Positions 91-16,547 of a stretch of DNA of 16,547 nt are shown one piece after another. Every line of letters starts with the position of its first letter. Positions within the stretch are counted from its first letter, which is position 1. The translations under genes and the position numbers were made by a program. The DNA is from Escherichia phage JLBYU27. The notes under the pieces were generated by a model. It was not told the DNA's origin, did no database searches, and saw only the letters and a list, made by a program, of their open reading frames with translations. Where the stretch lies: sequence record OK272475.1; one strand, given 5' to 3'.

Positions 91-97
91 AATGTGC

Positions 98-921: not shown

Positions 922-950
922 GGTTGCGCACCAACAACGAGGAAATGACA

Positions 951-1463: not shown

Positions 1464-1468
1464 CTAAC

Positions 1469-1923: not shown

Positions 1924-3019
1924 GCCATAACCCCCGGTTTTTAAGCTGCGCAATAGTCATTAGTTCGCCTGAATCGGTGAACATCTTCGGGACTTTCACG
2001 CCGCGCATAATCTGGTCGGCGCGTTGCACCCCGTATAATTCTTCCAGGATATGGCGCGGCTGGCGCTGCACCCATGAGAAGAAATCAGTCTGCGCGTCGA
2101 CCTGCTCACTCAGCAATCGGCCCGCGTCAGCCTTCAGTGCCGGACGCTTACCACTGGGCCAATCTTCCATGCCTTTAACCTTCCACGTCTCCGTCGACCG
2201 GCAACAATAATGCAACTTGCCCGGACCAGCGCCATATTGTGACCCAGCCACCATTTTCCCGCCGCGCTTTCCTTTGGTGTCGGGAGTAACATCAACCGGA
2301 TAAAACAGGCGATCGCGTAGCTGGCACATGGGAGAAGTATGCGTGTCCAATGTAGATAACCATTGGCGACCTTCGAGAATATCGTCATTTGCTTTTACCA
2401 TTAGTTCGCGGGCGGTCGCCGCATAGTGGTTGACTGCCGACTTAACAACGCTTGAGATAGCTTGCGCACTACGACCGCCGAGCGCGCGCCTCACGTCCGC
2501 TATAATTTCCATAGTCGGCTTGCCCTGGATGAATCCGGCGCGCACCTGATTGCCGATCTGCGTTCTGGTCCATTCTGAAAGTGAATCGGGCCATTGCATC
2601 ATCGTATTACCCAGGAACGGGTTTTTCATCGCAGTCGCTGCGATCTGCGCACCTGTCACTACGCCCACCACCTCGACCGCAGGTACGGCGACCACCGGCT
2701 GGATCGCTGCCGTTAATGTGTCGGCGAGATAATCGGCCTCGGTGTCGGCAAACTCCTGAAGGCTTTCAGCCAACACCTTAAACTCGGTGCGCAGTTCCGT
2801 TTTGACGGTCTTGTCCAGTTGCGTCAACAGTGTGGTAAGTGCCTTGTTGCTCATGGTCTTTTTGCCATCAAGTAACTCGGTCAGCTTACCCAGTAGCGTG
2901 GGCCGGAACTTCTCCCACATAGCCAACACCCTCCGCGCCTGGTCATTGCTCAGGCGCTGGGTGAAGATGTGCCGGCGAATCATTCGATCCGCCATATATT
3001 GATTAATTGTCTTCGCCAT
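1916..3019 (-). CDS. phage head morphogenesis protein (Mu F / SPP1 gp7 family-like, 367 aa)
   Basis: ATG at 3019, overlaps the portal gene 3' end by 17 nt. Contains the family-typical block TLDTHTSPMCQLRDRL ... GKLHYCCRST (D.HT/S ... H.CCR). Position directly after the portal gene. Confidence 0.75.
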   Translation of the reverse strand: MAKTINQYMADRMIRRHIFTQRLSNDQARRVLAMWEKFRPTLLGKLTELLDGKKTMSNKALTTLLTQLDKTVKTELRTEFKVLAESLQEFADTEADYLADTLTAAIQPVVAVPAVEVVGVVTGAQIAATAMKNPFLGNTMMQWPDSLSEWTRTQIGNQVRAGFIQGKPTMEIIADVRRALGGRSAQAISSVVKSAVNHYAATARELMVKANDDILEGRQWLSTLDTHTSPMCQLRDRLFYPVDVTPDTKGKRGGKMVAGSQYGAGPGKLHYCCRSTETWKVKGMEDWPSGKRPALKADAGRLLSEQVDAQTDFFSWVQRQPRHILEELYGVQRADQIMRGVKVPKMFTDSGELMTIAQLKNRGLWRD

Positions 3020-4523
3020 TGTCCGCTACCTCGTCCGGGTCTTCGTCGGTAGATTCTACCGCATCCGGGGACATTTGAGGCAATGGATTCTGATTTCGCA
3101 ATTCGTCTTCCACCTGCTCAACGGTTTGCGAGTCATCAATGACGCCCTGGGCCATCATCCACTTTATAAAGTCCGCCAGACGGACCGTACCGGTCTGCAC
3201 ACCAGCCATCATTGCGGTCATAAGCTGTGCGTCAACCGTGATTTCGGTGTAGAACTTATTCAGCGTTACACGTTGATCTGCGGTGTCGCCAGTGAACAGC
3301 TTGACGATTTGCAGCGCACGGTTGAAAGCCTTCTCAACGTTACCGGCAATCAGCGACAGGATACTGTTATCAGTCTGCGCATCGTAGGCCGCTTCAGTTG
3401 CCGTCTTAGGTGCGGTCCCCTTCTCGACCAGGGCAGCGCCCAGTTTAGCCATTTGCAACTCGCGTCGCTCACACAGCGCAACTGACAGGTTTCTCTCCTC
3501 CGCCTGAAGCAGTTTAGCGTCCATGTTCTGGCCCAGGATAACGCCCTTAGTTGCCCCGAGCGCGATGCCTCCCTTCAGGTTTTTATCAGCCCATGATTGG
3601 GTAAGACCGGTTGCAATGAGAGTAGGTTGACCCACGATGTGCGCAATCTCGGCGACGTCCGCTTCGGCGTTGTAGTGCTTAATGTTGATGGACGCAATAT
3701 CCGCCAGCGGTGCGGCGTCCGGTGTCGCGTTGTTGTCCACCGCGCCACACCAGCAAAATGGCAGTTGAGTAAGCGCATTACCGGCGGCATCCACCAGTGG
3801 CACAAGGTCGGTGCGGGTGAATCCCCGCGGCAAGTCCATTTGCACCTCGGACGTGTCCGCGTTGTAATACCAGCGGCGACCGTGTGCCACACCGTTAATC
3901 ATGCGAAGCTCGGTCCAGATTGTAACTTTGTGGTTTGCGAAGTCGTCCGGGTCTTCGGTGCTGATTTCGTCCGTTTCCTTCAGCACAATTAGCGTATCGA
4001 CGCCGTGGGTCTGCCGCCAGTTGATGATCTGTTCTGCCGTGTACAGGCGTATAAGCGGGCGGTGTGACGCCATTTCAGCGGCTGTCTGCGGCACTACGTT
4101 ACCCAGTTCATCAAAGTTAGCCTGGCGGTCGTAGTCCACCATAAAGCCAGCGCGGCCCGATTGCAGCACTTCCGACATAGCGCCGCGCAGGAGTTGCGCC
4201 AGTGGCATCCCGCTGCCGTCTACGTCATCAATCAGGTCAGCCATTGCCCCGGAAAGGTCCATACTCACCGGTTTGGCGAAGGCGACACCTAACAGTGCAT
4301 TCAGTGTGCGGGCGGTGGCGTTCAGGAAGACAGCACGTTGCTTATATGCCTTATAGCGCGCACGCGATTTCGGGTCAGTGGTGTCGCCGCTGGCTGGGTG
4401 TGGCAGGTACAAGGGGCCGCACGCCTTCACGGCGCGCTCCCCTGCTACACAATCACGGATCATTTTCCACTCTGGCGAGATGCGCGCATAGAGCGGGTGC
4501 TGGTTGTCAACGTTAACGGTCAT
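3003..4523 (-). CDS. phage portal protein (506 aa)
   Basis: ATG at 4523 with AAGGAA RBS 8 nt upstream. 506 aa with a strongly acidic C-terminal tail (DEDPDEVADNGEDN). Sits between terminase large subunit and head morphogenesis protein. Confidence 0.7.
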   Translation of the reverse strand: MTVNVDNQHPLYARISPEWKMIRDCVAGERAVKACGPLYLPHPASGDTTDPKSRARYKAYKQRAVFLNATARTLNALLGVAFAKPVSMDLSGAMADLIDDVDGSGMPLAQLLRGAMSEVLQSGRAGFMVDYDRQANFDELGNVVPQTAAEMASHRPLIRLYTAEQIINWRQTHGVDTLIVLKETDEISTEDPDDFANHKVTIWTELRMINGVAHGRRWYYNADTSEVQMDLPRGFTRTDLVPLVDAAGNALTQLPFCWCGAVDNNATPDAAPLADIASINIKHYNAEADVAEIAHIVGQPTLIATGLTQSWADKNLKGGIALGATKGVILGQNMDAKLLQAEERNLSVALCERRELQMAKLGAALVEKGTAPKTATEAAYDAQTDNSILSLIAGNVEKAFNRALQIVKLFTGDTADQRVTLNKFYTEITVDAQLMTAMMAGVQTGTVRLADFIKWMMAQGVIDDSQTVEQVEDELRNQNPLPQMSPDAVESTDEDPDEVADNGEDN

Positions 4524-4534
4524 GGTTGGTTTCC

Positions 4535-5920
4535 TTAGTAGAAGTCTACGGTTGGAACAACGGCGATCGGTCGAATCACAGGGAACAGGTGCGCAACAGG
4601 ATAGCCCGCGGCGTCGTTCATGTGGTCCACACCGGCAGTTTTATCCGGCTCGCCTTTCTTCAGGTCATAAACCTGCTGTTCCAGACATTTCGCTAGTGTA
4701 GGGCATTTATCCAGGTTGACAAAATACTGGCGCACGCCCTTCGAGTTGCACATCATCGTATTCATCGCGATCAATCGGTCTTTCACTGGCGGGTTAACGC
4801 TGTCATATTCCACATTGAAGCCAGCATCTTCCAGTTGCGCGATATCGGACGACGACGCGTTGACCGTTTTGCGGGATTTTCCGCTGCTATCCGGGTAAAC
4901 GACTACCCTACCGGCGGCACAATGTTCGGGATAGCGCTCCTCGATCGCCTCAATCATAGCCGGGGTGTCAAACAGGTCCACGAATTCATCCACGGCGTGA
5001 ATCTCGTCGCGGAACTCCTTGTTCTCGGTGGTACGCTGCCGTCTTACATACACGACCGCCGCCATTTTCGTGACGTTAAAGTCCATACCGATAATCAGCG
5101 TGTCGTCCGGCTGCACTTCTTCGGTGCTGGCGTTCTCCTCGCGATTAAACATCTTGTACACCGCGCCCGACGTAAGGTTAACAAACAGGCCGTTCAGGTA
5201 CGCATCAATCAGGTTAGCCGGGTACTGACTGCGAAGCGTGTCGATAAAGTCTGCTGGTAAATGGTGGTTGTCTGTGGTCTTCGCCCGGATCAAGCGTTTC
5301 TGGCTGTCCTTCTCCACCTCGAAAATTTGGTACATCGCCCGGTAGCCTTCAGGCGTTGACACGATGACGAACTGGCGGACGAAGCCCGCACGCAGACGAC
5401 CTAGCAGTTTGTGATATGCCGCCAGCGCGACGTCTTGTTTCGTGGTGTCGAACTCGTCGGCAACAATCCACGCGGCGTTGACCCCGATCAGGCGGGTATA
5501 GTTCTCCATTGATTCACAGATCACGCGGGTCCATTTGCCTTTCACCAGAACGCTATAGATCTTGTCCTGCTTGTTGAACTTCCACCGGAAGCCAGCCTCG
5601 TCGAAAGCCTTTTCCAATTCCGGATACATGATTTTAACCAGGAGTGGAATAGTCGGTTCGGTAACGATGCCGTCATGACCTGGGTTCAGTGTGAGAAGCT
5701 GGATTACCTTACGGGCTGCGACCCATGACTTGCCGCCGCCGAAGCCGGAGCACAGGCCGAGGATTTTAGTCTTCGTGTCCCGTAGTAGTTCGACCTGGTG
5801 CGGTAGGCAATCAGGCTGGTAAAGACGCACCGCCTGCGCAACGCGCGTAGGGCGTGGCGGTCGGTTGCGCTTTGCGATCGCGCGCTCCAGTGCGCGGTGT
5901 TCTGCCGCATAGTTACGCAT
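4535..5920 (-). CDS. terL: terminase large subunit (461 aa)
   Basis: Walker A-like LGLCSGFGGGKS and Walker B-like WIVADEFD in the N-terminal ATPase region; C-terminal nuclease-like region (LIIGMDFN ...). Start ATG at 5920 overlaps the terS stop (TAATG). Confidence 0.9.
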   Translation of the reverse strand: MRNYAAEHRALERAIAKRNRPPRPTRVAQAVRLYQPDCLPHQVELLRDTKTKILGLCSGFGGGKSWVAARKVIQLLTLNPGHDGIVTEPTIPLLVKIMYPELEKAFDEAGFRWKFNKQDKIYSVLVKGKWTRVICESMENYTRLIGVNAAWIVADEFDTTKQDVALAAYHKLLGRLRAGFVRQFVIVSTPEGYRAMYQIFEVEKDSQKRLIRAKTTDNHHLPADFIDTLRSQYPANLIDAYLNGLFVNLTSGAVYKMFNREENASTEEVQPDDTLIIGMDFNVTKMAAVVYVRRQRTTENKEFRDEIHAVDEFVDLFDTPAMIEAIEERYPEHCAAGRVVVYPDSSGKSRKTVNASSSDIAQLEDAGFNVEYDSVNPPVKDRLIAMNTMMCNSKGVRQYFVNLDKCPTLAKCLEQQVYDLKKGEPDKTAGVDHMNDAAGYPVAHLFPVIRPIAVVPTVDFY

Positions 5921-6492
5921 TAATCACCCTGACCTTTGCCGGTAGGTTCCACAACGACGTCGCCGTTATCATCTTCGTCGTCATCCAGCGGTACATCGTC
6001 GCGGACGCCGTGGTTTGCTTTAAGCAGGAATGTAGCGAAGCCTGCCGCGATGGTCACGCCGCCAGCTTCCATCAGGAAGGTTTTCTGCAGTTCCATAGCG
6101 TCCGCCATCGCCTCGGCGAACTCCTCATGTGCGCGCGCCCAGCGATACAGGCAAGCTACGCCCACACCGATTTCCGCGGCAAATCGTCCGAAGGTTGGCA
6201 TTTTGTTGCGAGGGATTACTTGCGCAGCGCCTTTATCGGAGTAGTTGACCTGCCAGGCGTCGGCGTCGGCAAAATAGCGGCGAAGCTGGTCGCAGTAAAC
6301 GGATCTGTAGTCAGTAGGGCGCCCACATTTGCCACCTTTACGGCGCTTGCCATACTCGATCTCGGGTCCAAGATTGGTGTGTTCTGTTTGCTCGCCTGGT
6401 TTACGGCGCGGGGTTACTGCTACTCGTCCGTCCAGTTTGGCGCGTCGGCCCTTAACTTTGATTTCTGCCATGATATAAGCCCTTTTGTTCAT
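5920..6492 (-). CDS. terS: terminase small subunit (about 190 aa)
   Basis: Translationally coupled to terL. Contains the HTH-like block TFGRFAAEIGVGVACLYRWARAHEEFAEAMADAMELQKTFL typical of small terminase subunits. Start taken as ATG 6492; ATG 6471 (AAGGG RBS) is an alternative; the ORF-track start at 6570 is a non-ATG codon and less likely. Confidence 0.7.
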   Translation of the reverse strand: MNKRAYIMAEIKVKGRRAKLDGRVAVTPRRKPGEQTEHTNLGPEIEYGKRRKGGKCGRPTDYRSVYCDQLRRYFADADAWQVNYSDKGAAQVIPRNKMPTFGRFAAEIGVGVACLYRWARAHEEFAEAMADAMELQKTFLMEAGGVTIAAGFATFLLKANHGVRDDVPLDDDEDDNGDVVVEPTGKGQGD

Positions 6493-6541
6493 ATGCGCCG
6501 ACCATCGGCAACATAGGAGACGGCCCTGCCATCTAATGGGG

Positions 6542-6575
6542 ATTATAACAGGCGCAAAAAAGCCCACCAAATCGG
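6542..6575 (-). promoter_or_regulatory. candidate promoter for terS overlapping the upstream terminator
   Basis: Perfect -10 TATAAT on minus strand (complement of 6542-6547), 17 bp spacer, weak -35 TTGGTG. Confidence 0.3.
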
Positions 6576-6580
6576 CAGGC
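6556..6580 (-). terminator. putative rho-independent terminator after the metallophosphoesterase gene
   Basis: On minus strand: GCCUGCC-GAUUU-GGUGGGC followed by UUUUUU (stem includes two G.U pairs). Lies 22 nt after the stop at 6602. Confidence 0.4.
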
Positions 6581-6601
6581 TGGGAGGATTACGGGTTGCC
6601 G

Positions 6602-7744
6602 TTACTTCAACATTTCCGGGCTAATGGTTAAGCGCGCTACTTCGCCGTAGTTGGCGCTATAGGTAATGACGTTGGCACTACGACCGGACATCCAACCACC
6701 GCGGCTGGCGTAGGCGTCTTTCGCTGCGAGGGTCCGGTGCTGTTCAACAATCATGTTACGGGATTCTACAATCTTCTGGTGGTGCAAGTGGCCTACGTGC
6801 GCGTAGCTGTACTCACTGGCCCCGAAAGCCTGTCTGAATTTAGAAATCATGACGGTTTCGATAGCGTCAAAGCGCGCTTTATGCCCGTGGTGGAAAAATA
6901 GCGTGGTCTTGCCGTGCTGCACCATTTTGTAGACGTCCGGGGACGTATCCACATCGACGCGCGGCTCGTTCTCGTACAGCGTGTTGAACATCTCAGCAAG
7001 CCAAATCATGCCCGACTCATCATGATTCCCCTGGACGATTAGCAGTTTGACTTTGTGGTGTTTTTGCAGGGCAAGTTCGACGACGTTGCGCACCATGCGA
7101 ATCATGTATCGGACCAGTTTCTGGTATCGGGTGTCCGCGTCCAGTATGTGACCACTTGCCGGAGTGACAGCATCGAGGCTATCAAAGTGGGCCATATCAC
7201 CGAGGATATTAATTACGGCAGTGCCTGCGTCCGGGGCGCGGGCGAAGGCTTCGACAAACCAGCGGTAGAACAGGTCTTCGGCTATCGCCATATCCCAGTC
7301 TTCGCCAGTCTCCTCGCCCCATGCCAACATGCCCAGGTGGAAGTCTGACACGGTGTACAGGTTGAGTAAGTCGAGCGCCTGGATCGGTACTGGCGGGGCG
7401 TTTACTGGCGCTGCCGGTGTGATTTCGCTGTTCATACCCTCGACAACAGCGCGCATAGCTTCGAGTTGGCGCTCCTTGTCCTGCTCAGTGATAACCCACG
7501 ACATGACCTCTTCGCCATTGCCGCGCACCAGGGCCGATACGCGCTTAACGCCGAAGCCATCGGCAACGCGCTGGCGGATTACGGCGTCGTTGCCGTGCCC
7601 AATTCCTTTTTTCGATAGGCGGGCTTTCCGCATGTAGACGTTTCGGAGGGACAAACCGTACTTCTTAGAAATCTCTTTCGATGTAGCGCCGGATTGTAAT
7701 TCAGCAATCAATTGCTCGTCTGTGATTTTAGTTTGCGGGTGCAT
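6602..7744 (-). CDS. HTH domain fused to a calcineurin-like metallophosphoesterase (380 aa)
   Basis: ATG at 7744 with AGGAAG RBS 6 nt upstream. N-terminal HTH-like segment (TSKEISKKYGLSLRNVYMRKARLSKKG). Metallophosphatase signature motifs in order: DFHLG, GDMAHF, GNHDE, HHGHK, GHLHH. Own promoter and flanking terminators. Confidence 0.75.
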   Translation of the reverse strand: MHPQTKITDEQLIAELQSGATSKEISKKYGLSLRNVYMRKARLSKKGIGHGNDAVIRQRVADGFGVKRVSALVRGNGEEVMSWVITEQDKERQLEAMRAVVEGMNSEITPAAPVNAPPVPIQALDLLNLYTVSDFHLGMLAWGEETGEDWDMAIAEDLFYRWFVEAFARAPDAGTAVINILGDMAHFDSLDAVTPASGHILDADTRYQKLVRYMIRMVRNVVELALQKHHKVKLLIVQGNHDESGMIWLAEMFNTLYENEPRVDVDTSPDVYKMVQHGKTTLFFHHGHKARFDAIETVMISKFRQAFGASEYSYAHVGHLHHQKIVESRNMIVEQHRTLAAKDAYASRGGWMSGRSANVITYSANYGEVARLTISPEMLK

Positions 7745-7769
7745 AATTACTTCCTGATTATGGGACCGG

Positions 7770-7805
7770 GGACAATATATCACGGGACTTATCGAGGCGG
7801 GCAAT
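7770..7805 (-). promoter_or_regulatory. extended -10 promoter-like element for the metallophosphoesterase gene
   Basis: Minus strand reads CGTGATATATT (TG-n-TATATT) flanked by GTCCCG / GTCCCCGG motifs; possible weak -35 TTGCCC 19 bp upstream. Confidence 0.35.
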
Positions 7806-7830
7806 AAAAAGCCCGGATAATACCGGGCTT
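7802..7830 (-). terminator. rho-independent terminator ending the lysis operon
   Basis: 8 bp stem AAGCCCGG / CCGGGCTT with 6 nt loop; on minus strand followed by TTTTTATT. Located 7 nt after the stop of the 55-aa ORF. Confidence 0.7.
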
Positions 7831-7836
7831 GATTGT

Positions 7837-8004
7837 TTACGCTGCAGGACCAGATTCTTCCTGCGGTGGTGGGCTTGGCAGCTTCGCATCGAAGACCCCA
7901 GCGTGGCTGATAGTGTCCGCGATGATAGCGCGTGCCCCAGGATCTTCGGTTTTAGCCAGTGCGGCAAGCGCGTCCGCATTATGATCAAGAATACTTTTCA
8001 ACAT
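7837..8004 (-). CDS. hypothetical small protein (55 aa) downstream of endolysin
   Basis: ATG at 8004 with GAGGGGA RBS about 7 nt upstream. No TM segment or lipobox, so not a spanin. The longer ORF-track form (to 8241) would overlap the endolysin gene and is not favoured. Confidence 0.4.
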   Translation of the reverse strand: MLKSILDHNADALAALAKTEDPGARAIIADTISHAGVFDAKLPSPPPQEESGPAA

Positions 8005-8020
8005 ATCGTGTCCCCTCGTA

Positions 8021-8512
8021 TTATGCTGCGTTACGACCGATTCGCTCGGCAACGTCCCACTGCTTACCGTCAAACAACGCCTGTCTGCCGATTGCACGAC
8101 GGACAAGCCCCTTAAGCACTGCCCCGCCTTGCTTGCGGAATTGTGGCAGTGTAGCCCGGACTTTTGCCCAGTCACCCAGGCGGACAGCATCGTCGAAGTC
8201 ACCGGCGACGTCGTCCGGCATGATCGGACCAGGGCCTGCATTGATGACCAGATCCACCAGCGCGTCGAATTGCGCTTGATTAATGCTCGGATGTGCGTAT
8301 TTGTTCACCCAGTCCTCGGCATACGCCACATCGCGCTTGAGCAGTGCCAGCGCTTCCTCGCGGGTAATGCTTCTAGGCGGATTAGTGCCAGTATGACCAT
8401 AACCCCAGGTGTACAGGCCGCGGGCCTGCTCTTTCTTGGTCGCGAAATATGGCACCGGGCTGAAAGCCTCCCAGGCTGCCGTAAATCGTAGACCGTTATC
8501 ACTGAATCGCAT
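8021..8512 (-). CDS. endolysin, phage lysozyme (163 aa)
   Basis: ATG at 8512. Lysozyme-like N-terminal block (LYTWGYGHTG) and C-terminal RRAIGRQALF resembling lambdoid phage lysozymes. Immediately follows holin-like genes. Confidence 0.8.
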   Translation of the reverse strand: MRFSDNGLRFTAAWEAFSPVPYFATKKEQARGLYTWGYGHTGTNPPRSITREEALALLKRDVAYAEDWVNKYAHPSINQAQFDALVDLVINAGPGPIMPDDVAGDFDDAVRLGDWAKVRATLPQFRKQGGAVLKGLVRRAIGRQALFDGKQWDVAERIGRNAA

Positions 8513-8744
8513 GTTTTACCCCATTCAAAACAGCATTACGCAGGGTGCGCAATGCAAACAGCCAGATTAACGCGGTCCAGGTGGTATCAGACACGTCTCC
8601 TGTTTGCAGCAACCCGATAAAACAGACCATTGCCGTTAACAGATACAGCACCCGACCGAAAATGCCATCCTGGACGGACGGCGCATACACGTTAAACAGG
8701 GACGAAGCCCCTATGATAACAAACAACAGGACGGAGATAATCAT
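8499..8744 (-). CDS. small membrane protein in lysis cassette (holin-like / antiholin candidate, 81 aa)
   Basis: ATG at 8744 overlaps the holin stop (ATGA); 2-3 predicted hydrophobic helices; overlaps the endolysin start by 14 nt. Confidence 0.5.
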   Translation of the reverse strand: MIISVLLFVIIGASSLFNVYAPSVQDGIFGRVLYLLTAMVCFIGLLQTGDVSDTTWTALIWLFALRTLRNAVLNGVKHAIQ

Positions 8745-9031
8745 TTTGCACCCCCCGGAAGTCGGAACGACGCAATAGTCCCCCGGATCCGGTCGGCGAT
8801 TGGCATCCAGAAGATGGCAGTTACGAAGCCCAAACCGGCGACAGTGCGCTCGCCAGACAAACCAGACCACTCGGCGATAGCTGGCGCACCAAATATGGCA
8901 CACAGGAAGCCAACCACGATATATAAAACGAAGTTCAACGGCCCTTTCGTTGCCTCGCCATGAATGCGTGCGCCTACGAAGCCACCAGCAAGACACGCAA
9001 TGGCGAATAACCACTCGTTTAGCTTATCCAT
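8741..9031 (-). CDS. holin (96 aa, three hydrophobic segments)
   Basis: ATG at 9031. Three hydrophobic stretches (WLFAIACLAGGFVGA, FVLYIVVGFLCAIFGAPAIA, GLGFVTAIFWMPIA) and a charged C-terminus. First gene of the holin / endolysin cluster. Confidence 0.7.
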   Translation of the reverse strand: MDKLNEWLFAIACLAGGFVGARIHGEATKGPLNFVLYIVVGFLCAIFGAPAIAEWSGLSGERTVAGLGFVTAIFWMPIADRIRGTIASFRLPGGAK

Positions 9032-9083
9032 AAAAAAGTCCCAGTAAGTTTTAGCTCACTGGGACTATATCACGCTTGCATAA
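9032..9083 (-). promoter_or_regulatory. terminator-like hairpin with embedded extended -10 element immediately upstream of holin
   Basis: Perfect 9 bp inverted repeat AGTCCCAGT (9037-9045) / ACTGGGACT (9058-9066) with 12 nt loop; on minus strand followed by TTTTTT then the holin ATG. Minus strand also reads TTATGCAAGCGTGATATAGT (TG-n-TATAGT) overlapping the upstream arm. Confidence 0.45.
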
Positions 9084-9371
9084 TTAATCGAAAATGGACC
9101 ACTTGCCGACGTCTTTCCACGCCCACCCGGATGATCGGACGGCTTCGAATGTTCGACCGCCTATCATATCCCGATACCACAGCCACCACATGCGCAACCT
9201 GGTCGGGTGCTCCGTGATTCCACGGCGCTTGTAGATCTCGAACGTCATGCGGGTAATGCTGGCGGCTTCCACAGCAGGCCATACTACGAACATCAGGACA
9301 CCCAACAGCACCGCGGTAAGCAGACACAGCCCGCAGATCAAACCAAACCAATATATCAAATCGTGTAGCAT
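9084..9371 (-). CDS. hypothetical membrane protein (95 aa, one N-terminal TM segment)
   Basis: ATG at 9371 with GGAAGGGG RBS 8 nt upstream. Hydrophobic N-terminus (IYWFGLICGLCLLTAVLLGVLMFVVW) then a Trp/Arg-rich soluble part. Confidence 0.5.
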   Translation of the reverse strand: MLHDLIYWFGLICGLCLLTAVLLGVLMFVVWPAVEAASITRMTFEIYKRRGITEHPTRLRMWWLWYRDMIGGRTFEAVRSSGWAWKDVGKWSIFD

Positions 9372-9492
9372 CGTATTGCCCCTTCCGGTTTGCCAATATG
9401 GCGCGCCCATGCACGCGCCACGAAGTAATTGCGAAATACCCGACCGCCTATCTCGAAGCGGTTATGCTGAAGCATATCACGGATCGTCGCAC

Positions 9493-9966
9493 TCATTTCA
9501 GAATCACCGAGCGCGGGTCGATGGCTTTCATGCTGCCGTCACGTTCGACCCGGATGAATCCGACGCCGTATTCCTGCGCATGGCGCTGTGCGTTTGTCAC
9601 GGCATCCGCTATGGCGCTCGATCGCTCATGCGGCTGGCGATCCCGAAGGCTGTATTTGCGACCCACTCGCTCGTAATTTACGAGGCCGAAGTAAGTCATA
9701 CCGGCGACGCCATCCTTGCGGGATTGCATACGCAGGCCATGAAGCCCGACATATTCAACGATCCACATACTACCGTCGCGAATATCACGCAGCACATCGC
9801 CGCGCGCAATATCGTGGGTCAGTACGTCAAAGTTTTCATACAGCCCGTCTTTCTTCGCCCACCAAACCCGACTGCCTGCTGCGTTTTGCAGGCGGACGTA
9901 GGAATCCAGGGTCTGTATTGGCGTAAGGATGCACCCGTCATGCTTGCGGCGGAATAGTAATTTCAT
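9493..9966 (-). CDS. hypothetical protein (157 aa), unassigned; candidate late regulator
   Basis: ATG at 9966 with GAGGAGA RBS; start overlaps the stop of the upstream small ORF (ATGA). No motif I can assign. Confidence 0.55.
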   Translation of the reverse strand: MKLLFRRKHDGCILTPIQTLDSYVRLQNAAGSRVWWAKKDGLYENFDVLTHDIARGDVLRDIRDGSMWIVEYVGLHGLRMQSRKDGVAGMTYFGLVNYERVGRKYSLRDRQPHERSSAIADAVTNAQRHAQEYGVGFIRVERDGSMKAIDPRSVILK

Positions 9967-10097
9967 TGCTCTGTCTCCTCGATCTCTTCGATAGTCTTCG
10001 TGTCGCCATCGCATACCGTAGCGATGCCGTTTTGTTTGTAGTCAAGTTCGCACATATGCAGGTAGATAAACTCCTGCGAGAATCCGCCTATCAACAT
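9963..10097 (-). CDS. hypothetical small protein (44 aa), uncertain
   Basis: ATG at 10097 with GGAGA about 9 nt upstream; coupled to the downstream gene. The same frame extends upstream to a GTG at 10268, overlapping the 90-aa ORF in a different frame. Confidence 0.3.
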   Translation of the reverse strand: MLIGGFSQEFIYLHMCELDYKQNGIATVCDGDTKTIEEIEETEQ

Positions 10098-10363
10098 CTG
10101 CTCAGTCTCCAGTGTTTGCCCACCCGCTCGACTGCGGGCTTTCGGCGTAATGTAATACGTATTCCCATTGGTAGCAAGGAAGTCCGCACCCTGAAATCGT
10201 GTTGTGCTGCGAACTGGCGCAAGTAGCGGGTCTGCGTTAATGGCTTCACATCGTCGCGATAGCGCCACAGCACAGAATCGCCCTCAATCGCATTCTTAGC
10301 CCATATTCGTATGCAATGCAGGGTAATGCGCCACGAAAGCTGTTTCGCGCGTCTGCGGTCCAT
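10091..10363 (-). CDS. hypothetical basic protein (90 aa)
   Basis: ATG at 10363 with AAGGGG RBS 6 nt upstream, 10 nt after the stop of the 101-aa gene. Arg/Lys/Trp-rich. Confidence 0.45.
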   Translation of the reverse strand: MDRRRAKQLSWRITLHCIRIWAKNAIEGDSVLWRYRDDVKPLTQTRYLRQFAAQHDFRVRTSLLPMGIRITLRRKPAVERVGKHWRLSRC

Positions 10364-10372
10364 TTTGGCCCC

Positions 10373-10678
10373 TTATTTCGCAAGCTGGGCGAATAGTTCG
10401 CGCTGGGCTTTAATCCGGGCGACGTTTGCCACTGCCGTCTCGCCAATACTGAAGAGATATGCCAGGCGCTCACGGGAGAATGCTTTGGCGTATTCGTGAA
10501 TCGCCACACGCAACGGCTTCAGTTCGTCCAGGCTGGCGTCCATGCGGTAGAGCGCATCCCTAATTGATTGGTGCGCCAGAATAGCAATCTGAAGCGCGGC
10601 GTCTACGCTGCCGTTAAGTGCCTTCGCTTCGTCCAGCTTTGCCACGGCCAGGGTGTAATTCCAGATTAGTGCTTTCAT
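10373..10678 (-). CDS. hypothetical helical protein (101 aa), first gene of the operon upstream of the lysis genes
   Basis: ATG at 10678 with AGAGGA RBS 7 nt upstream, directly downstream of the sigma70-like promoter at 10707-10735. Confidence 0.55.
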   Translation of the reverse strand: MKALIWNYTLAVAKLDEAKALNGSVDAALQIAILAHQSIRDALYRMDASLDELKPLRVAIHEYAKAFSRERLAYLFSIGETAVANVARIKAQRELFAQLAK

Positions 10679-10699
10679 CGTTCAGTCCTCTTGTTGGTG

Positions 10700-10740
10700 T
10701 GCAACCAATATAGCAGTGTGCCAGGCAGGATGCAACCAAT
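10700..10740 (-). promoter_or_regulatory. sigma70-like promoter with extended -10, flanked by two ATATTGGTTGCA direct repeats
   Basis: Minus strand: -35 TTGCAT (10735..10730), 17 bp spacer, TGcTATATT (10715..10707). The 10-mer ATATTGGTTGCA occurs twice (complement of 10701-10712 and 10731-10742). Leader is near-identical to that of the clamp-like gene. Confidence 0.45.
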
Positions 10741-10945
10741 ATTAATCACGCGTATGAAAAAGTTGATCGCTATCTGCTGAAACTGCAAACTGCATTTTTC
10801 ACTTTCCATTCTGCATCGCGCATTGGTTGCCGAGTTCATCGCCGACCGCAATTTGCATCATGTTGCCGTGGATTATGCAATCCCGGATTTTATGCAGTCT
10901 CAGACGAGGGGGGTGACAGACCCCCCGTCTAGTCTGAAAGACTGG

Positions 10946-11210
10946 GGTGCTGTCCCGCTGTCCCGATCGGCTAAACCCCGCGGCAGCACTGGCGGGGACA
11001 GGGTGCTGTCCCGCTTTGTCCCGCCCCTGGTCTGTCCCGCTTTTTGTCCCGCTTAGTTTATGCACGAAAACAGAATAGATATTCACATTTTGGGGGTGGG
11101 ACAGATCGGGACAGCACCCCTGTCCCGTTTTTAATTTATGCAATGTTGGTGGGTAAATATGCAGTTTTTAGAGGTGCGGGATAGAACGGGACAAAACGGG
11201 ACGTCCCGCC
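10946..11210. repeat. iteron-like array of at least 12 copies of TGTCCCGC / GCGGGACA in both orientations
   Basis: Forward copies at about 10951, 10959, 11007, 11017, 11033, 11045, 11121; inverted copies at about 10993, 11097, 11106, 11176, 11186; a perfect 12 bp palindrome CGGGACGTCCCG at 11197-11208. Longer unit GGTGCTGTCCCGC recurs three times. Interspersed AT-rich TTTATGCA motifs. One hairpin CGGGACAG-caccc-CTGTCCCG is followed by TTTTT. Confidence 0.8.
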
Positions 11211-11222
11211 TGTACCGCTTCG

Positions 11223-11547
11223 TTATGCGGGGTTCTGCCGCGCCATTTCATCCAGCGCAACGCGTTCCATTAGCTTGATATCTTTAAACGCACGTTGCGC
11301 GTTTTCGATGCCGTGCATCTTAAATAGCCATTCCAGTACGCCGTAGTCGATGCCGTATGCGCCGCCGAATCCGGTACGCCATTGCGTGGCGCAATCGGTG
11401 AAGACTGCGACTATCTTCGCATTGTCGGGCCATATTGCAACAGGCGGACAAACATCTTCGGGGGCCGCACCCCATAAACTTGCGGCTAAATCTTCGGAGG
11501 GTGGCGGCGGGCCATAAAAGCGTCGCGCCGCCTCAATTAGTTTTTTT
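11223..11547 (-). CDS. -1 frameshift extension of the tail assembly chaperone (GT-like T domain, about 107 codons)
   Basis: A7 slippery run (plus-strand T7 at 11541-11547) lies immediately before the G-gene stop; by hand translation the -1 frame stays open from there to a TAA at 11225..11223 (KKLIEAARRFYGPPPPSEDLAASLWGAAPEDV ... KLMERVALDEMARQNPA). Confidence 0.5.
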
Positions 11548-11899
11548 CACGCAGGCCCATCAGTTCGAGATAGTACGACGTGTGGAACACACCGAACGCG
11601 CGAGGGTAGTTAACCACCAGGCGGCGGACGTTCTCCGCGTTAAATTCATCTGGCAGATTCCAGCCTTCAGCGACGTGCATGATGGCCTCGACCATAACGT
11701 TAAAGCCTTCCGGGTCGTTGTCGTCGTATTCCGACAGCTTGCGCTCCGTGTCCTGCATGGTCTGCGAAAATTCGTCGATCGGGCGGTGGCGTACGGTAAA
11801 CGTCATTTTGCCTGGTTCGTTCTCACCAGGGCGCGGGATCTCAATCGGCAGCTTAAAGGTAGGCTTAGGGTCAAGTGTAAAGAGTGGTGCTTTAGCCAT
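11537..11899 (-). CDS. tail assembly chaperone (lambda G-like, 120 aa)
   Basis: ATG at 11899 with GGAG RBS; acidic small protein immediately downstream of the major tail gene; ends ...GLREKN with the A7 slippery site in the last codons. Confidence 0.6.
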   Translation of the reverse strand: MAKAPLFTLDPKPTFKLPIEIPRPGENEPGKMTFTVRHRPIDEFSQTMQDTERKLSEYDDNDPEGFNVMVEAIMHVAEGWNLPDEFNAENVRRLVVNYPRAFGVFHTSYYLELMGLREKN

Positions 11900-11913
11900 T
11901 GTAGTATTCTCCA

Positions 11914-11938
11914 ATAAAAAAGGGGCCGTGCTGGCCCC
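11914..11938 (-). terminator. rho-independent terminator after the major tail gene
   Basis: Stem GGGGCC / GGCCCC with loop of 5 nt; on minus strand followed by TTTTTTATT. Sits between the major tail stop and the chaperone RBS. Confidence 0.65.
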
Positions 11939-11968
11939 ATATTATCACCCGCTATTTAAGCGACCAAA

Positions 11969-12694
11969 TCAAGACAGCGCCTCGACCAAGTCCTTACGGT
12001 AAATAACCATATCGGACTGCATGGTCAGCGTGGACTCCACCGTCTCCACGTTGTTTACTTCAGACGATGGGATCTTCCGGAAAGACACCTTAGCCGGGTA
12101 AATGCGGATCTCACCTTTGCCGCTTGCCGCTGCCGGGTTAGTGAACTTAATCACAGTGGTTTTCTGTGTGTCGTCCAGGTCTTCCAGAATCGGGCGGATC
12201 GGGTCTTCTTCGTCGTGGGTGAAGGTGTAAGTCTGGACCAACGGGTTTTTCGTGGTGTTCAGACTGATCGCGGTATTCACCTGCAACGGCTGGAAGGTAG
12301 TAGTCTGCTGGTCGCCACCAGACACGGCGACGTTAGTGATATACGGGAAGTCGACAAAGCTCGACACCTTCACCACCTCACCCGGTGTTCCTGTGCTGAA
12401 AGCGCCGGTAGGGTATTTGGTTACGTCTTTAGTATCGAAGCGCGCCAGTGTAACGTCGTTAGTCGCCACTTTACCCACGATGAACGCGCGGTTCAGCGCA
12501 CGGACCCACGGGGTTTTAGTGAACATAACCACGTCACCAACTTTCAGGCCATGAGAAGCCGCGCAGGTGATAACGCAACCTTTCGTAAGACCAGAGATCG
12601 ACGCGGCGGCGTTGGTAGCTGCCGTAACGGCGATACCTTCGCTTAATACGGACCCAATCTGCACGCTGGATCCATTCGGTAACTGGTAGCCCAA
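11969..12694 (-). CDS. major tail protein (lambda V-position, 241 aa)
   Basis: TTG start at 12694 preceded by AGGAGG with 5 nt spacing; an in-frame stop lies just upstream so no ATG alternative exists. Ser/Thr/Val-rich protein followed by a terminator and the G/GT chaperone pair. Confidence 0.6.
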   Translation of the reverse strand: MGYQLPNGSSVQIGSVLSEGIAVTAATNAAASISGLTKGCVITCAASHGLKVGDVVMFTKTPWVRALNRAFIVGKVATNDVTLARFDTKDVTKYPTGAFSTGTPGEVVKVSSFVDFPYITNVAVSGGDQQTTTFQPLQVNTAISLNTTKNPLVQTYTFTHDEEDPIRPILEDLDDTQKTTVIKFTNPAAASGKGEIRIYPAKVSFRKIPSSEVNNVETVESTLTMQSDMVIYRKDLVEALS

Positions 12695-12749
12695 AATATC
12701 CTCCTAAATCAATAGATTACAGTATTTGCAGCCTGAGACATTTCAGGTC

Positions 12750-12778
12750 TTGACTAATCATACCACCAACGGTACTAT
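12750..12778 (+). promoter_or_regulatory. sigma70-like promoter for the plus-strand HNH-like gene
   Basis: -35 TTGACT (12750-12755), 17 bp spacer, -10 TACTAT (12773-12778); GGAG RBS at 12801 and ATG at 12810. Confidence 0.4.
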
Positions 12779-12809
12779 CCACAAAAATCGTTAATCAACT
12801 GGAGCGGAT

Positions 12810-13403
12810 ATGCGTAAAGGCATTCTTTTCGAAGGCATGACATTTAGAGGCGTTACTTTGTTGCGTAAAGGGCCAGGCCTTAAGTGGTTCTGTTCTTGCC
12901 CCGTATGCGGAAGCGAGACACTTCGCACTAACGGCGCACTATTGGATTTTATGCGAGGCGAAACACTGCGCTGGGTATGTACTTGTTTCGGCAAGAAATC
13001 TCGACACGGAATGACGGGGACGCCAACAATGATTACATGGGAAGGTATGATTCAGCGATGCCACAACCCCAATGCGACTAAATACGAAATATATGGCGGT
13101 CGAGGGATTACGGTGTGTGACCGCTGGCGAGTATTCAAGAACTTCCTGGAAGATATGGGCTTGCGGCCCGCCGGAGCAACCCTTGATAGAATCGACAGTA
13201 ACGGCAACTATGAGCCAGGTAATTGCCGGTGGGCATCCCAAAAAGACCAAACCGAAAACACTCGTAGGATTGTCCGAGTTATATATGAGGGGCGTGAATA
13301 TTGTCTTAAGGAAGCGTGCAAGGCGGCGGGCGTGAATTATGACACTATTAGAAAGAAATGGAAAAAAAGCGGGGAAATGTTCCACCGCTTTGAGATGATT
13401 TAA
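12810..13403 (+). CDS. HNH/AP2-family homing-endonuclease-like DNA-binding protein with N-terminal Cys-rich zinc-ribbon-like segment (197 aa)
   Basis: Contains the W..M..RC.NPN...Y..YGGRGI.VCDRW..F..F..DMG ... LDRID..GNYEP.NCRWA motif block that I recall from phage HNH/AP2-type homing endonuclease-like proteins; N-terminal CSCPVCG ... CTCFG. Opposite strand to the flanking tail genes; its stop overlaps the stop of the convergent U-like gene (TTAA). Confidence 0.55.
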   Translation: MRKGILFEGMTFRGVTLLRKGPGLKWFCSCPVCGSETLRTNGALLDFMRGETLRWVCTCFGKKSRHGMTGTPTMITWEGMIQRCHNPNATKYEIYGGRGITVCDRWRVFKNFLEDMGLRPAGATLDRIDSNGNYEPGNCRWASQKDQTENTRRIVRVIYEGREYCLKEACKAAGVNYDTIRKKWKKSGEMFHRFEMI

Positions 13404-13822
13404 GCGCAACAGGTGTAGGGGACTGTAACCACGATGCGGGCGCGATCAACGTCCTCAACCACTGAACTGGTGTATGGCGCGTCCTGAAGCTGGAATGCAG
13501 CGCCGGAAATCTTTACCGTCAACCACTTATCCGACGTAGCGATGGCGTCCGCCAGTTCGCTCGCGTACTGTGTACCCGTGCCTGCAGGGAACACCACGGC
13601 AACCTGATATACGCCTGCATAGATTCTCCCCTTTTGCTGGAGGCCCACAAACTGGGTCGGGGCCGGTAGCAGGTACGGCTCCAGGTAGACACCACTCCCG
13701 TTTGCGTGGTCCCCTTGCACGTTCTCCCAGTTAACCTTGATCGGCCGCGGGCTTGTGCTTAGGCTCGCCGATAACTCTTCTACCACGCTGTTAAGCGCTT
13801 TGCGGATTGCGGTATTGCTCAT
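13400..13822 (-). CDS. putative tail terminator / tail completion protein (lambda U-position, 140 aa)
   Basis: ATG at 13822 overlapping the upstream stop (TAATG); size and position immediately upstream of the major tail gene. Assignment by synteny only. Confidence 0.4.
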   Translation of the reverse strand: MSNTAIRKALNSVVEELSASLSTSPRPIKVNWENVQGDHANGSGVYLEPYLLPAPTQFVGLQQKGRIYAGVYQVAVVFPAGTGTQYASELADAIATSDKWLTVKISGAAFQLQDAPYTSSVVEDVDRARIVVTVPYTCCA

Positions 13823-14415
13823 TATTTCACCTTCGAATTAATTTCTGCCGCTACGACGCGAACAATCCCCGCGGGCGCTTGTTTACTCCAGCCATACTCA
13901 AGTCGCTGCGCGTATGGCACGTTGTTAGTAAACCAGATCGACCCGTATTCACTGGAATCGTAATGCGCCAGCACTTCACGCCCTGCGGCTAATGTTGCCG
14001 TTCCGGCCTTATCCACGCGGTCAATAGCGCCAACAGCCGGGCGGTCGAACGTAACCTGCCAGTTTCCCCGGAAGCGTCCGCCGGTGTAATTCTTCGCAGC
14101 CCAGCCACGCTGGCGGAACGTGACGTTGCCGTTTTTAGTCTTGAATGATACCAGCACGCTGGCGTGCTTTTTCTGCCCGCGCTTCAGTTTGCCACCATTC
14201 TTGCGACGCTGCGCGGCGTTCACCTTGTTCGCGTGCTGGCGGGCCAGCGCGTAAGCCCTGTTAATTTTCCACCGGCGAGGGTCGCCCACCGGGGAGATCT
14301 CAATAAGGCGTCCGAGTATTTGCATACCGTACGCCCGCACCGCCTTGTCGTTGTTCTCCTTCGTCTTATCCACCCACGTTGCAATAGTGGCGGCGAATGA
14401 GTAGACCTCAGCCAC
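13822..14415 (-). CDS. putative tail completion / head-tail component (lambda Z-position, 197 aa)
   Basis: GTG start at 14415 with AAGGGG RBS 6 nt upstream. Basic protein (RRKNGGKLKRGQKK). Assignment by size and synteny. Confidence 0.4.
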   Translation of the reverse strand: MAEVYSFAATIATWVDKTKENNDKAVRAYGMQILGRLIEISPVGDPRRWKINRAYALARQHANKVNAAQRRKNGGKLKRGQKKHASVLVSFKTKNGNVTFRQRGWAAKNYTGGRFRGNWQVTFDRPAVGAIDRVDKAGTATLAAGREVLAHYDSSEYGSIWFTNNVPYAQRLEYGWSKQAPAGIVRVVAAEINSKVK

Positions 14416-14416
14416 G

Positions 14417-14770
14417 TTAACCCCTTAGCTGTAGTTGAAACAGCATGGTTGTTCCAGCCGGTTGCAGTGGGTTTGGATTGATGACCCTGTAGTCTATATT
14501 GTTCAGGCTAACCAAATCCCCGACCTGCACCGGCTTTACTGCCTGGCACAAAAACTTCACATCCCCGGCAACGATACGCGTCCCGTCGATCTCGCTTGGC
14601 TTGTACTCCTCGCGAAGTCCGATGACGTCAAACGAGGTCGGAGGGATGACAACTTCGTCGCCGTCTACGCGGTCGACTGCACCAGGACGCGTCACCGTAG
14701 CCGTCATTCCGAACTTTTTAATCAGCGGATTGACTTTCCGCTTCAAGCCAGCGTAATTAAAGCCCGCCAT
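14417..14770 (-). CDS. putative head-tail joining protein (lambda FII-position, 117 aa)
   Basis: ATG at 14770 with AGGAGG 6 nt upstream; same length as lambda FII (117 aa) and similar overall architecture. Assignment by size and synteny. Confidence 0.45.
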   Translation of the reverse strand: MAGFNYAGLKRKVNPLIKKFGMTATVTRPGAVDRVDGDEVVIPPTSFDVIGLREEYKPSEIDGTRIVAGDVKFLCQAVKPVQVGDLVSLNNIDYRVINPNPLQPAGTTMLFQLQLRG

Positions 14771-14891
14771 TATCATCCTCCTGTACCGGTGGTTCCGGTT
14801 CTGGCGCTGGTTCCGGTTCTGGCGCTGGTTCCGGTTCTGGTTGGCGTTTAGTATTTGCGGCGATAATAGCCGCCAGTAATGCAGGATTCAT
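14757..14891 (-). CDS. small Pro/Glu-repeat protein (44 aa) encoded over an 18-bp tandem repeat
   Basis: ATG at 14891 with GGGGGTGA RBS; MNPALLAAIIAANTKRQ followed by PEPEPAPEPEPAPEPEPP. Coding status uncertain. Confidence 0.35.
   Translation of the reverse strand: MNPALLAAIIAANTKRQPEPEPAPEPEPAPEPEPPVQEDDNGGL
14786..14848. repeat. tandem repeat, about 2.8 copies of an 18-bp unit GGTTCCGGTTCTGGCGCT
   Basis: Read directly at 14791-14843; the unit is itself built from three related hexamers; encodes (PEPEPA)n on the minus strand. Confidence 0.8.
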
Positions 14892-14892
14892 A

Positions 14893-15393
14893 TCACCCCC
14901 GGAATACGTCAAAATTACCCGCTGCGTTGCCGTCTGCGTCAATCCAGTGTCCCAGCAAGCCATCCCACCACGGGAACGAAACACCGCTACCAATCGTCGC
15001 AGGGTCATATTCCATCGTGATCGGGCCTACCGTTTCGCGGATAGTCTCCTTTCCATCGCCGATCGGAGAAATATCAACATCGTCAGCCACCAGCATTGCC
15101 AGCCGGTAAACGGCTTGTTCAACGGCAACGGGGATTGATGCGAAGTCTACAATCTGCCCAGCAGGTACTACTGCCAAATCTTCAGTAAGCGTGTTCAGTA
15201 CCGGCTTACCGTCTGATGGGTAGTTGATGCGGGGCCATGCGTCAATTCCGGTCGGGTCCGCCGGTTCGCCGATCCAGGCGATGCCGTTGAGGAAATCATT
15301 AACTATGGTAAGGTGTCGCGTTGCATCGCCCTGCGTAATTTCAACGCCTCGCGCCGCGGCATAAACAACGAAGGTTTGCGGGTCGCCATACAT
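14893..15393 (-). CDS. putative head completion / head-tail connector protein (lambda FI-position, 166 aa)
   Basis: ATG at 15393 with AGGAG RBS 8 nt upstream; first gene after the capsid-gene terminator. Function by position only. Confidence 0.4.
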   Translation of the reverse strand: MYGDPQTFVVYAAARGVEITQGDATRHLTIVNDFLNGIAWIGEPADPTGIDAWPRINYPSDGKPVLNTLTEDLAVVPAGQIVDFASIPVAVEQAVYRLAMLVADDVDISPIGDGKETIRETVGPITMEYDPATIGSGVSFPWWDGLLGHWIDADGNAAGNFDVFRG

Positions 15394-15407
15394 TTTATTT
15401 GCTCCTA

Positions 15408-15435
15408 TAAAAAAAGGCGGGCTTATGCCCGCCCC
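15408..15435 (-). terminator. rho-independent terminator after the putative major capsid gene
   Basis: Stem GGCGGGC / GCCCGCC with loop TTAT; on minus strand followed by TTTTTTT. 18 nt after the stop at 15453. Confidence 0.7.
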
Positions 15436-15452
15436 TTTGGGATTTGCGCCGA

Positions 15453-16547
15453 TCAGGACGTTGTGGTCGCAGTCAGCGTAACCAGTACGCCAGCCGTTTC
15501 CTTGATGTTACGGGTCGGCACGGTCTGCGCAGTCTGTGTCTTACGACGGCCTTTAGTGTCGCTATCGCTGCCAACATCCTGAACGGTTGCCGGTGCGTTA
15601 TCTACCTGGCCCTGGTCCAGTTCCCAGTTTGCGGAAGTGGTAATATCGCTCAGTTTGAACGAGCACACACCTTCGATCGGGGTACGGGCGTCTGCCTTCA
15701 GACGGTAGCCTTTAACCGCCACGTTGAAGTCGAACTCGCCCTGCCACCAGCGCTCGATGTTCTCGTTACCGCCTTTTTCCTGCGCCAGCATATCGAGGCC
15801 GTTGGTGGTAACTGCAACCGCGCCAGGGACCAGACCCAGCATGTTACCGGCACCCATAGCACCGGCAGCGGCATCGGAGATAATGAAACGACGGCCCAGG
15901 CCATCGCCCATTACCTGAAGATCGCCGATTGCGAATACCTGCTCGGCAGACGGGAGCGCCTGGTATGCAATGAAGTTTGCCCAGGTAACGCCGTCCATAA
16001 ACCAGGATTTAATCAAAGACGCCTGATCGCCGAACTTAGAAGCCGCCAGCGGGAAGTCCGCCAGGGTCGGGAAGGTACGACCGCCAACGCCGTCAACGCG
16101 CGCCGGTTGGGTGTATTTTGCCGCTGGGTTGCTCTCGATCGCCGCTTTACTTGCACCGATACCGGCCTTCAGGTAATGCAGCATAATCGCTTGAGTAGCC
16201 TGTGCCGCAATCTCAGCCGCAACGCTGTTAACGTTGGTTTCGATCTTAGCCATCATAGCCTTAGTGATTGCTACCGGACCCACTTTCGCGGACAGGTTGA
16301 CGGAGTTGGTCAGCATACGCGCCAGCACTTTTGCGGTCGCCGGAGTACCGACAGGGGCATAGGCGTTACGGTCGGTAACGAGGTTGGCGATCAATCCTAC
16401 GGACATTTTTTCTACAACATCCTTCAGCACTTCACCAGTGCCGAGAACAACAGCGCCGTTAGCGGCAGCGTTGAACACGTTCAGGTTATCGGGGATCATT
16501 TGCGTAACCGCGGTGACGAGTTTACGCTGGAACACTGTTAAAGACAT
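15453..16547 (-). CDS. putative major capsid protein (364 aa)
   Basis: ATG exactly at the window edge (16547..16545). Ala/Gly/Val-rich structural-type protein followed by a strong terminator and then head-tail joining genes, the usual position of a major capsid gene. Not recognized at family level. Confidence 0.45.
   Translation of the reverse strand: MSLTVFQRKLVTAVTQMIPDNLNVFNAAANGAVVLGTGEVLKDVVEKMSVGLIANLVTDRNAYAPVGTPATAKVLARMLTNSVNLSAKVGPVAITKAMMAKIETNVNSVAAEIAAQATQAIMLHYLKAGIGASKAAIESNPAAKYTQPARVDGVGGRTFPTLADFPLAASKFGDQASLIKSWFMDGVTWANFIAYQALPSAEQVFAIGDLQVMGDGLGRRFIISDAAAGAMGAGNMLGLVPGAVAVTTNGLDMLAQEKGGNENIERWWQGEFDFNVAVKGYRLKADARTPIEGVCSFKLSDITTSANWELDQGQVDNAPATVQDVGSDSDTKGRRKTQTAQTVPTRNIKETAGVLVTLTATTTS

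Follow-up and report, generated by a model that had tools for sequence, protein, structure and literature searches.

The window analyzed here, the whole 16,547-nucleotide stretch of Escherichia phage JLBYU27 deposited as OK272475.1, carries on its minus strand the genes for the major capsid protein, the head-tail joining proteins, the major tail tube protein, and the tail assembly chaperones G and GT. These are followed by a repeat region, a small-gene operon, holin and endolysin genes, the terminase genes terS and terL, and the portal, head morphogenesis, and scaffold genes. This order, reported in a first-pass annotation of the sequence, was confirmed by the open reading frame (ORF) listing and by Pfam and PHROG family searches. 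The same annotation noted that the tail module stops after G/GT with no tape measure gene, and took the arrangement as a sign of either two tandem prophages fused by a deletion or a degenerate, satellite-like element. The missing gene was verified. Comparison with intact relatives points to another explanation, namely that the window is probably a fragment of a Dhillonvirus genome wrongly circularized in silico through an internal repeat.

The tail assembly chaperone G gene (11537-11899, minus strand) encodes 120 amino acids and matches PF08748 (E 1.1e-23). A slippery heptamer, A_AAA_AAC, is located at 11540-11546, near the 3′ end of G, and the -1 frame that follows is open for 105 codons and ends at 11223. 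The GT extension is real. Its T portion (11223-11546, minus strand) is translated in the -1 frame, and the HK578 record annotates an ORF that corresponds to it (HK578_016, DUF1799). The major tail tube gene (11969-12694, minus strand; PF08813, E 7.2e-33) is found upstream of G, and no tape measure gene is found downstream of GT within the window. When the 880-amino acid tape measure protein of a relative, three distal tail proteins, the helicase-primase, and the DNA polymerase were compared with the window by tblastn, nothing significant was detected (best E 0.04). In intact relatives, the tape measure gene follows GT after one copy, copy A, of a repeated element that is described below. The identical 120-amino acid chaperone is encoded in 10 public contigs, and in all 10 of them an 880-amino acid tape measure gene is located approximately 700 nt downstream. 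Exact-protein look-ups with eight window proteins returned a match for this chaperone only, always in contigs of the intact type.

The rotated circle and its hybrid junction

Among phage records, the window had 162 matches, almost all from Dhillonvirus-type phages of E. coli or Shigella (HK578, YD-2008.s, JL1, B2, and others). At least 80% of its length was covered by 85 of these records at 90-93% identity, and the nearest relatives, among which L034 and L039 are the closest metagenome contigs, are about 92-94% identical to it. Members of the genus package their DNA by a headful mechanism according to PhageTerm analyses (PMC10059673, PMC13348001), and a strictly lytic lifecycle has been reported (PMC13348001). 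Dhillonvirus genomes are approximately 44 kb long and include tape measure, distal tail, and replication modules. The 16,547 bases of the window amount to 37% of that length. They do not make up such a complete genome, although after rotation they are collinear with it at high identity.

The alignment of the window to YD-2008.s (L001) by blastn consisted of two blocks. Window positions 1-11064, from the scaffold gene through the small genes, correspond to reference positions 18993-30820, and window positions 10890-16547, from GT through the capsid gene, correspond to 14001-18992. The last and first bases of the window (16547 and 1) are thus adjacent bases of the reference (18992/18993), and they are also adjacent in L034 (5373/5372), at the scaffold/capsid boundary. 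The same two-block pattern was obtained with L039, NHEP3, and JL1. Read over the ends, the minus strand gives AAAGGATTTCGAT immediately before ATG, i.e., the capsid ribosome-binding site and then the start codon. The window is a rotated circle, opened at an ORF-free point directly before the capsid start codon. This opening, with the scaffold gene on one side and the capsid gene on the other, is what makes the single head module appear split. Two earlier suppositions fall with this observation. The supposed partial gene at 1-26 consists of intergenic spacer plus the ribosome-binding site AAAGGA that precedes the capsid ATG at 16547, and the supposed second head and packaging module does not exist: there is one module, its ends are adjacent in the relatives, and a comparison of the window with itself revealed no duplication, only repeats of 28-34 nt, with each structural gene present once.

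The second point at which the two blocks meet lies in the non-coding region at 10679-11222, which holds 11 of the 17 GGGACA copies of the window in direct and inverted arrays. Window positions 10890-11064 match two sites in each intact relative tested. In intact genomes, an element of about 175 nt occurs as two equally oriented copies approximately 16.6 kb apart (16,646 in YD-2008.s, where the copies are at 19316-19510 and 35962-36156 of L002). Copy A occupies a gap of about 400 nt that separates GT from the tape measure gene. Copy B has the helicase-primase gene on one side and the first gene of the small-gene operon on the other. When the window was aligned with the A and B copies of three relatives, bases diagnostic of B were found up to position 10894 and bases diagnostic of A from position 10966 onward. 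The switch from B to A, whether a crossover or a closure point, is therefore within the 71-nt block at 10895-10965 that the two copies have in common. The junction consists of a B-type half (10679-10894), identified by alignment to copy B of the relatives, the shared block, defined by the diagnostic positions, and an A-type half (10966-11222), identified by alignment to copy A. In other words, the left flank of B is joined through the shared block to the right flank of A, and the 27.7 kb of the other arc is absent. In intact relatives, these 27.7 kb encode the tape measure protein, the distal tail proteins, the fibers, and the replication functions. All genes of the window are intact and of the same length as in the reference.

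The 71-nt block includes a long imperfect hairpin and two GTCCCG motifs, and it is identical to copy B of NHEP3. The A-type half contains direct and inverted GGGACA repeats and an A+T-rich spacer. Among 15 intact genomes, the longest exact match between A and B was 25-70 nt, and in two of the 15 this match is the 70-nt counterpart of the junction block of the window. The element was found at 327 places in 158 GenBank records, about two per record, and a 25-nt core of it matched twice in 12 of the 16 IMG/VR contigs of 42.5-45.2 kb. Clusters of GGGACA were restricted to A and B in three whole genomes. In every Dhillonvirus examined, the pair brackets the packaging, head, and proximal tail block and parts GT from the tape measure gene.

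Origin of the circle

The permutation and the hybrid junction are best accounted for, with good but not overwhelming probability, by closure of a genome fragment during sequence processing. The fragment would begin at the start of the small-gene operon, take in the genes for lysis, packaging, the head, and the proximal tail, and stop at the end of GT. The assembler would have broken the genome at the exact A/B repeat and produced a contig with the same repeat at both ends, since any contig that spans the unique segment between two exact repeat copies ends in the repeat on either side. A virus-discovery pipeline would then have taken the end repeat for a direct terminal repeat, circularized the contig, and rotated it. 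Such closure would join the left flank of B to the right flank of A in a 16.5-kb circle and leave out the other 27.7 kb. The junction observed is indeed a sequence with two sites in the relatives, and its flanks come from different sites, while the ends of the record are adjacent in intact genomes, as they should be in a rotated circle.

The proposed steps agree with the way in which these genomes are assembled. An exact A/B match of 25-70 nt is long enough to defeat k-mers of 21-55, which are common for short-read metagenomes. Three independent GenBank assemblies end inside the shared block, those of UAE_MI-01 and Kente in copy A and that of HH3 in copy B. Assemblers do break at this block. 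All three were deposited as "complete," and the Kente sequence seems to be short by about 20 nt at the block. The records of UDS3lw and PEC9 both start at another nucleotide, the same in the two, 101 nt upstream of the first small gene; this shared start could reflect either a pac-side end derived with PhageTerm or a convention taken over from another record. As for the later steps, CheckV takes an end repeat of 20 bp as sufficient for a terminal direct repeat and cautions that fragments can be called complete (PMC8116208), and Cenote-Taker2 circularizes contigs that have terminal direct repeats and rotates them so that the wrap-point falls outside ORFs.

The alternative that survives best is that the circle is real, which we consider unlikely. 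If A and B recombined homologously while a Dhillonvirus replicates, the 16.5-kb late segment would be released as a true circle or as a defective, helper-dependent mini-genome. The excised segment could persist or be amplified in a mixed infection and be packaged by headful as multimers, with a full phage supplying the replication and distal tail proteins. The junction falls exactly within the longest block of A/B homology, that is, within a homologous repeat of the parent genome. Both terS and terL are kept in the segment, and all of its genes are intact, as would be the case after a recent event. Several further considerations weigh against closure in silico. A and B are slightly more similar within a genome (0.867) than between genomes (0.857; permutation p ~0.0008), which shows weak concerted evolution, and the metagenome contig L045 has an A-type conversion tract inside an otherwise normal copy B. 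These sequence comparisons indicate that A and B do recombine in nature, and a crossover in place of conversion would produce exactly this circle. The true product of A x B recombination would carry a sequence identical to that of the window, and the argument for an origin in silico draws on prior expectation and on the behavior of other assemblies. Finally, the 27.7-kb contig presumed to be the partner of the window had no match in the collections searched.

The evidence for a real circle, however, fits closure during assembly equally well. The hybrid junction, with B on the left and A on the right, was found in none of the 158 GenBank records and had no occurrence in IMG/VR, the JGI metagenomes (strict pattern), or the GTDB genomes, and the reciprocal junction had none in IMG/VR. 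A relaxed version of the hybrid pattern had a single match in the JGI metagenomes, which was rejected as a candidate: it is the ordinary B locus of L045 with its internal A-type tract, not a circle. The segment has no replication gene detectable by tblastn, and a rare recombinant would not normally be expected to yield a contig of its own in an assembly. A more specific proposal, more doubtful again than that of a real circle in general, is that the window is a helper-dependent mini-Dhillonvirus, derived by recombination between the GGGACA-array elements and made up of the terminase genes and exactly one late transcription unit. If this were true, and if the A and B elements were replication or packaging signals, the circle could parasitize the full phage, which would provide replication and packaging in trans, and the element pair would predispose the whole genus to shed such circles. 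Closure in silico is favored over these possibilities because the window has 37% of the genome length, no replication genes, all its genes intact, and no second hybrid junction in the collections named above.

The remaining explanations are far weaker and together leave little probability. If the window were a phage satellite or a degenerate element, for instance a capsid-forming phage-inducible chromosomal island (cf-PICI) with head and packaging genes of its own and tails borrowed from a helper, its rough composition of head, packaging, and proximal tail genes, with no tape measure or tail tip gene, would be accounted for. This reading is very improbable. The window is 90-94% identical in nucleotide sequence to complete, ordinary phages and fully collinear with them, it carries the tail tube, tail terminator, and chaperone genes as well as a complete lysis cassette, no integrase, regulator, or replication family was matched among the genes scanned, and its boundary is a phage-internal repeat and not an att site. 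Even less can be said for a viable phage with a rearranged genome in which the tape measure and the other missing genes lie beyond the ends of the window. Its sole advantage is that the flanks are outside view; the two ends meet at a single reference position with base precision, which would be an extreme coincidence for a piece cut from a larger rearranged genome, and no such gene order was seen in the 158 GenBank records or the 16 IMG/VR contigs.

The fusion of two tandem related prophages is hardly credible at all: it draws on nothing but the apparent order of capsid to GT and then terS to scaffold in the linear window, with the topological point that a deletion from A of one concatemer copy to B of the next would leave the same junction, and it is opposed by the single head and packaging module with no internal duplication, by window ends that are adjacent bases in the relatives, by the absence of any match in 5,426 complete E. 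coli genomes, by the strictly lytic lifestyle of the relatives, and by the lack of an integrase among the Pfam and PHROG matches and of any host flank. What stands of that proposal is the deletion-type join, with loss of the distal tail genes and the whole early region (about 27.7 kb), and not the two prophages or the second module. Alignment to intact relatives, suggested in the first-pass annotation as a check, showed that the relatives have the tape measure gene, and it gave no support to a prophage or a satellite. An assembly artifact had been named there as what would overturn those readings, and it is now the probable explanation.

The missing tape measure gene is thus best explained as an artifact of the circularization of a fragment from a known phage genus. 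The biological claims that the window might invite, of a tailed phage without a tape measure, of fused prophages, or of a new satellite, do not hold. The case indicates that an internal repeat of 44-71 nt, conserved in a well-sampled genus, can make a 37% fragment pass for a complete circular virus. Catalogs that take contigs with terminal repeats as complete will hold objects of this kind.

The two-copy element and other genes of the window

Independently of the origin of the circle, the two-copy element is a genuine, if modest, feature of the genus that seems to have gone unannotated. It is made up of arrays of GGGACA/TGTCCC half-sites, as direct repeats and as GGGACAG-N4-5-CTGTCCC palindromes, together with an A+T-rich spacer that includes TGCATAAA motifs. 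Its hairpin of about 20 bp has a conserved stem and a variable loop, and loop variants are common to both copies of one genome. In phage UDS3lw, copy B is tandemly duplicated, with hairpin blocks at 43824 and 43960, 136 nt apart. The curated HK578 record has no annotation for the element. A 114-amino acid ORF that overlaps the element in the window (10799-11143) had no family match and was taken as spurious, and Rfam searches at gathering thresholds detected no known RNA family across the window.

With respect to function, the hairpin of the shared block folds moderately better than shuffled sequences (z -2.0 for the minus strand and -2.6 for the plus strand). It was considered as an intrinsic terminator and rejected, since it has no U-tract. 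The sequence TTGCAT-17 nt-TATATT, recognized by eye just upstream of the first small gene (which begins at 10678) and within the B-type half, is only a lead as a putative promoter; a consensus promoter scan of 10300-12000 found no sigma-70 site and did not list it. Both copies of the element are upstream of a late-gene block in the direction of transcription, and the HK578 record annotates a rho-independent terminator right after the T ORF, with the tape measure gene 360 nt beyond. It is plausible that A and B act as homologous control regions that head two late transcription units. The first unit would start at B and stop at the terminator after GT, and the second would start at A and take in the tape measure gene and the distal tail genes, with the GGGACA arrays as putative binding sites of a phage protein. 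An origin-like role may be considered as an alternative, with the repeats acting as iterons that flank an A+T-rich spacer near the helicase-primase gene. Work on late-gene control or replication in Dhillonvirus could reasonably be directed at the element.

The other genes of the window, all on the minus strand except where indicated, are those of an ordinary member of the genus. The major capsid protein (364 amino acids) is encoded at 15453-16547, with its ATG as the last triplet of the window, and matches PF20036 (E 2.6e-59). The head-tail joining genes (13400-15393), in which PF20557 and PF13554 were matched, comprise adaptor Ad1 (14893-15393), head closure Hc1 (14417-14776), Neck1/tail completion (13822-14415), and the tail terminator (13400-13822; PF13554); all four are collinear with annotated YD-2008.s genes. 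An ORF at 14757-15008, between the adaptor and head closure genes, includes three tandem 18-nt units (14787-14840, minus strand) that encode a PEPEPA repeat, and its counterpart in relatives is much shorter (about 39 amino acids).

An HNH homing-type endonuclease gene (12810-13403, plus strand; phrog_3377, E 4.9e-47) is situated between the tail terminator and tail tube genes. The same slot is occupied by a 197-amino acid gene on the opposite strand in L034 and L039, but not in the other 8 of the 10 contigs that encode the chaperone or in the annotated genomes YD-2008.s, JL1, and NHEP3. The HNH gene appears to be an inserted mobile homing endonuclease. A terminator-like hairpin followed by a T-run (GGGGCCAGCACGGCCCC TTTTTT) was identified at 11922-11938 (minus strand), in the interval from the tail tube gene to chaperone G. 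It could attenuate transcription and in this way set the ratio of tube to chaperone. A sequence like it is found at 1470-1500, between the spanin genes and the opposite-strand gene described below.

On the other side of the junction, the small-gene operon (10373-10678, 9963-10268, 9493-10014, and 9084-9410) and two holin genes (8741-9031 and 8499-8744) were identified through PHROG matches, and the endolysin gene (8021-8512) through PF00959. This whole stretch (8021-10678) is collinear with genes 45-53 of YD-2008.s. It is followed by the genes for a phosphoesterase/exonuclease (6602-7804), terS (5920-6492), terL (4535-5920), the portal protein (3003-4523), and a MuF-like head morphogenesis protein (1916-3019), assigned by Pfam and PHROG matches and by the reference annotation. 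The spanin genes (1594-1953 and 1482-1712) and the head scaffolding gene (98-850, with the start probably at 799) were assigned by PHROG matches and the reference annotation. The family matches for the genes at 98-1953 were phrog_2536, phrog_3007, and phrog_206. The remaining bases, 1-97, are the spacer between scaffold and capsid genes, in which AAAGGA is 7 nt before the ATG at 16547 when the circle is closed.

A gene for 188 amino acids (897-1463, plus strand; phrog_3007) is located between the spanin and scaffold genes on the opposite strand. In the same slot, 7 of the 8 ENA/Logan contigs with the identical chaperone that cover it have a gene for a 254-amino acid Nmad5-domain protein, and one has a 170-amino acid gene. 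Window positions 955-1462 had no nucleotide match to YD-2008.s or L034. The gene looks like a swapped accessory gene. A 22-nt sequence, TATATTGGTTGC(G/A)CACCAACAA, is present in inverted orientation at 916-937 (plus strand) and 10691-10712 (minus strand), directly upstream of this gene and of the small-gene operon. Exact copies of ATTGGTTGC occur four times in the window (919, 10701, 10732, and 10822), all within these two upstream regions. The sequence may be a shared promoter or operator.

Comparison with known systems

The known systems that the window resembles differ in how much of the resemblance holds. As integrated islands, cf-PICIs carry an integrase, regulators, and a replication module of their own, and their lineages are distinct from those of their helpers. 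Like the window, they have head and packaging proteins without a complete tail. Neither their integrase, regulators, and replication module nor the distinct lineage expected of PICI, cf-PICI, or P4-like elements is found in the window, which is a piece of a phage. Lambda dv-type circles and defective interfering genomes are mini phage genomes that arise when internal repeats recombine. A sub-genomic circle with a repeat at its boundary and a need for a helper, as proposed above for the window, would be of this kind. Lambda dv, however, keeps the replication region, whereas the segment in the window has no replication gene.

The closest likeness is to Dhillonvirus itself (HK578, YD-2008.s, JL1, B2, and UAE_MI-01). 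Nucleotide identity is 90-94%, gene content and order are the same once the window is made circular, the same G/GT frameshift is found, and the two halves of the junction element can both be recognized. The HNH endonuclease gene of the window is shared by only some of these relatives. The difference is that in intact Dhillonvirus genomes copy A is followed by the 880-amino acid tape measure gene and then by the distal tail and replication modules, whereas in the window A is fused to B and these 27.7 kb are absent. In its form as a record, the window is similar to the output of tools of the Cenote-Taker2 type, in which the wrap-point is placed at an ORF-free position, a likeness of pattern and not a documented history. 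It shares with the fragments miscalled complete, the low-confidence terminal-repeat class of CheckV, the same short length, closure through an internal repeat, and missing essential genes.

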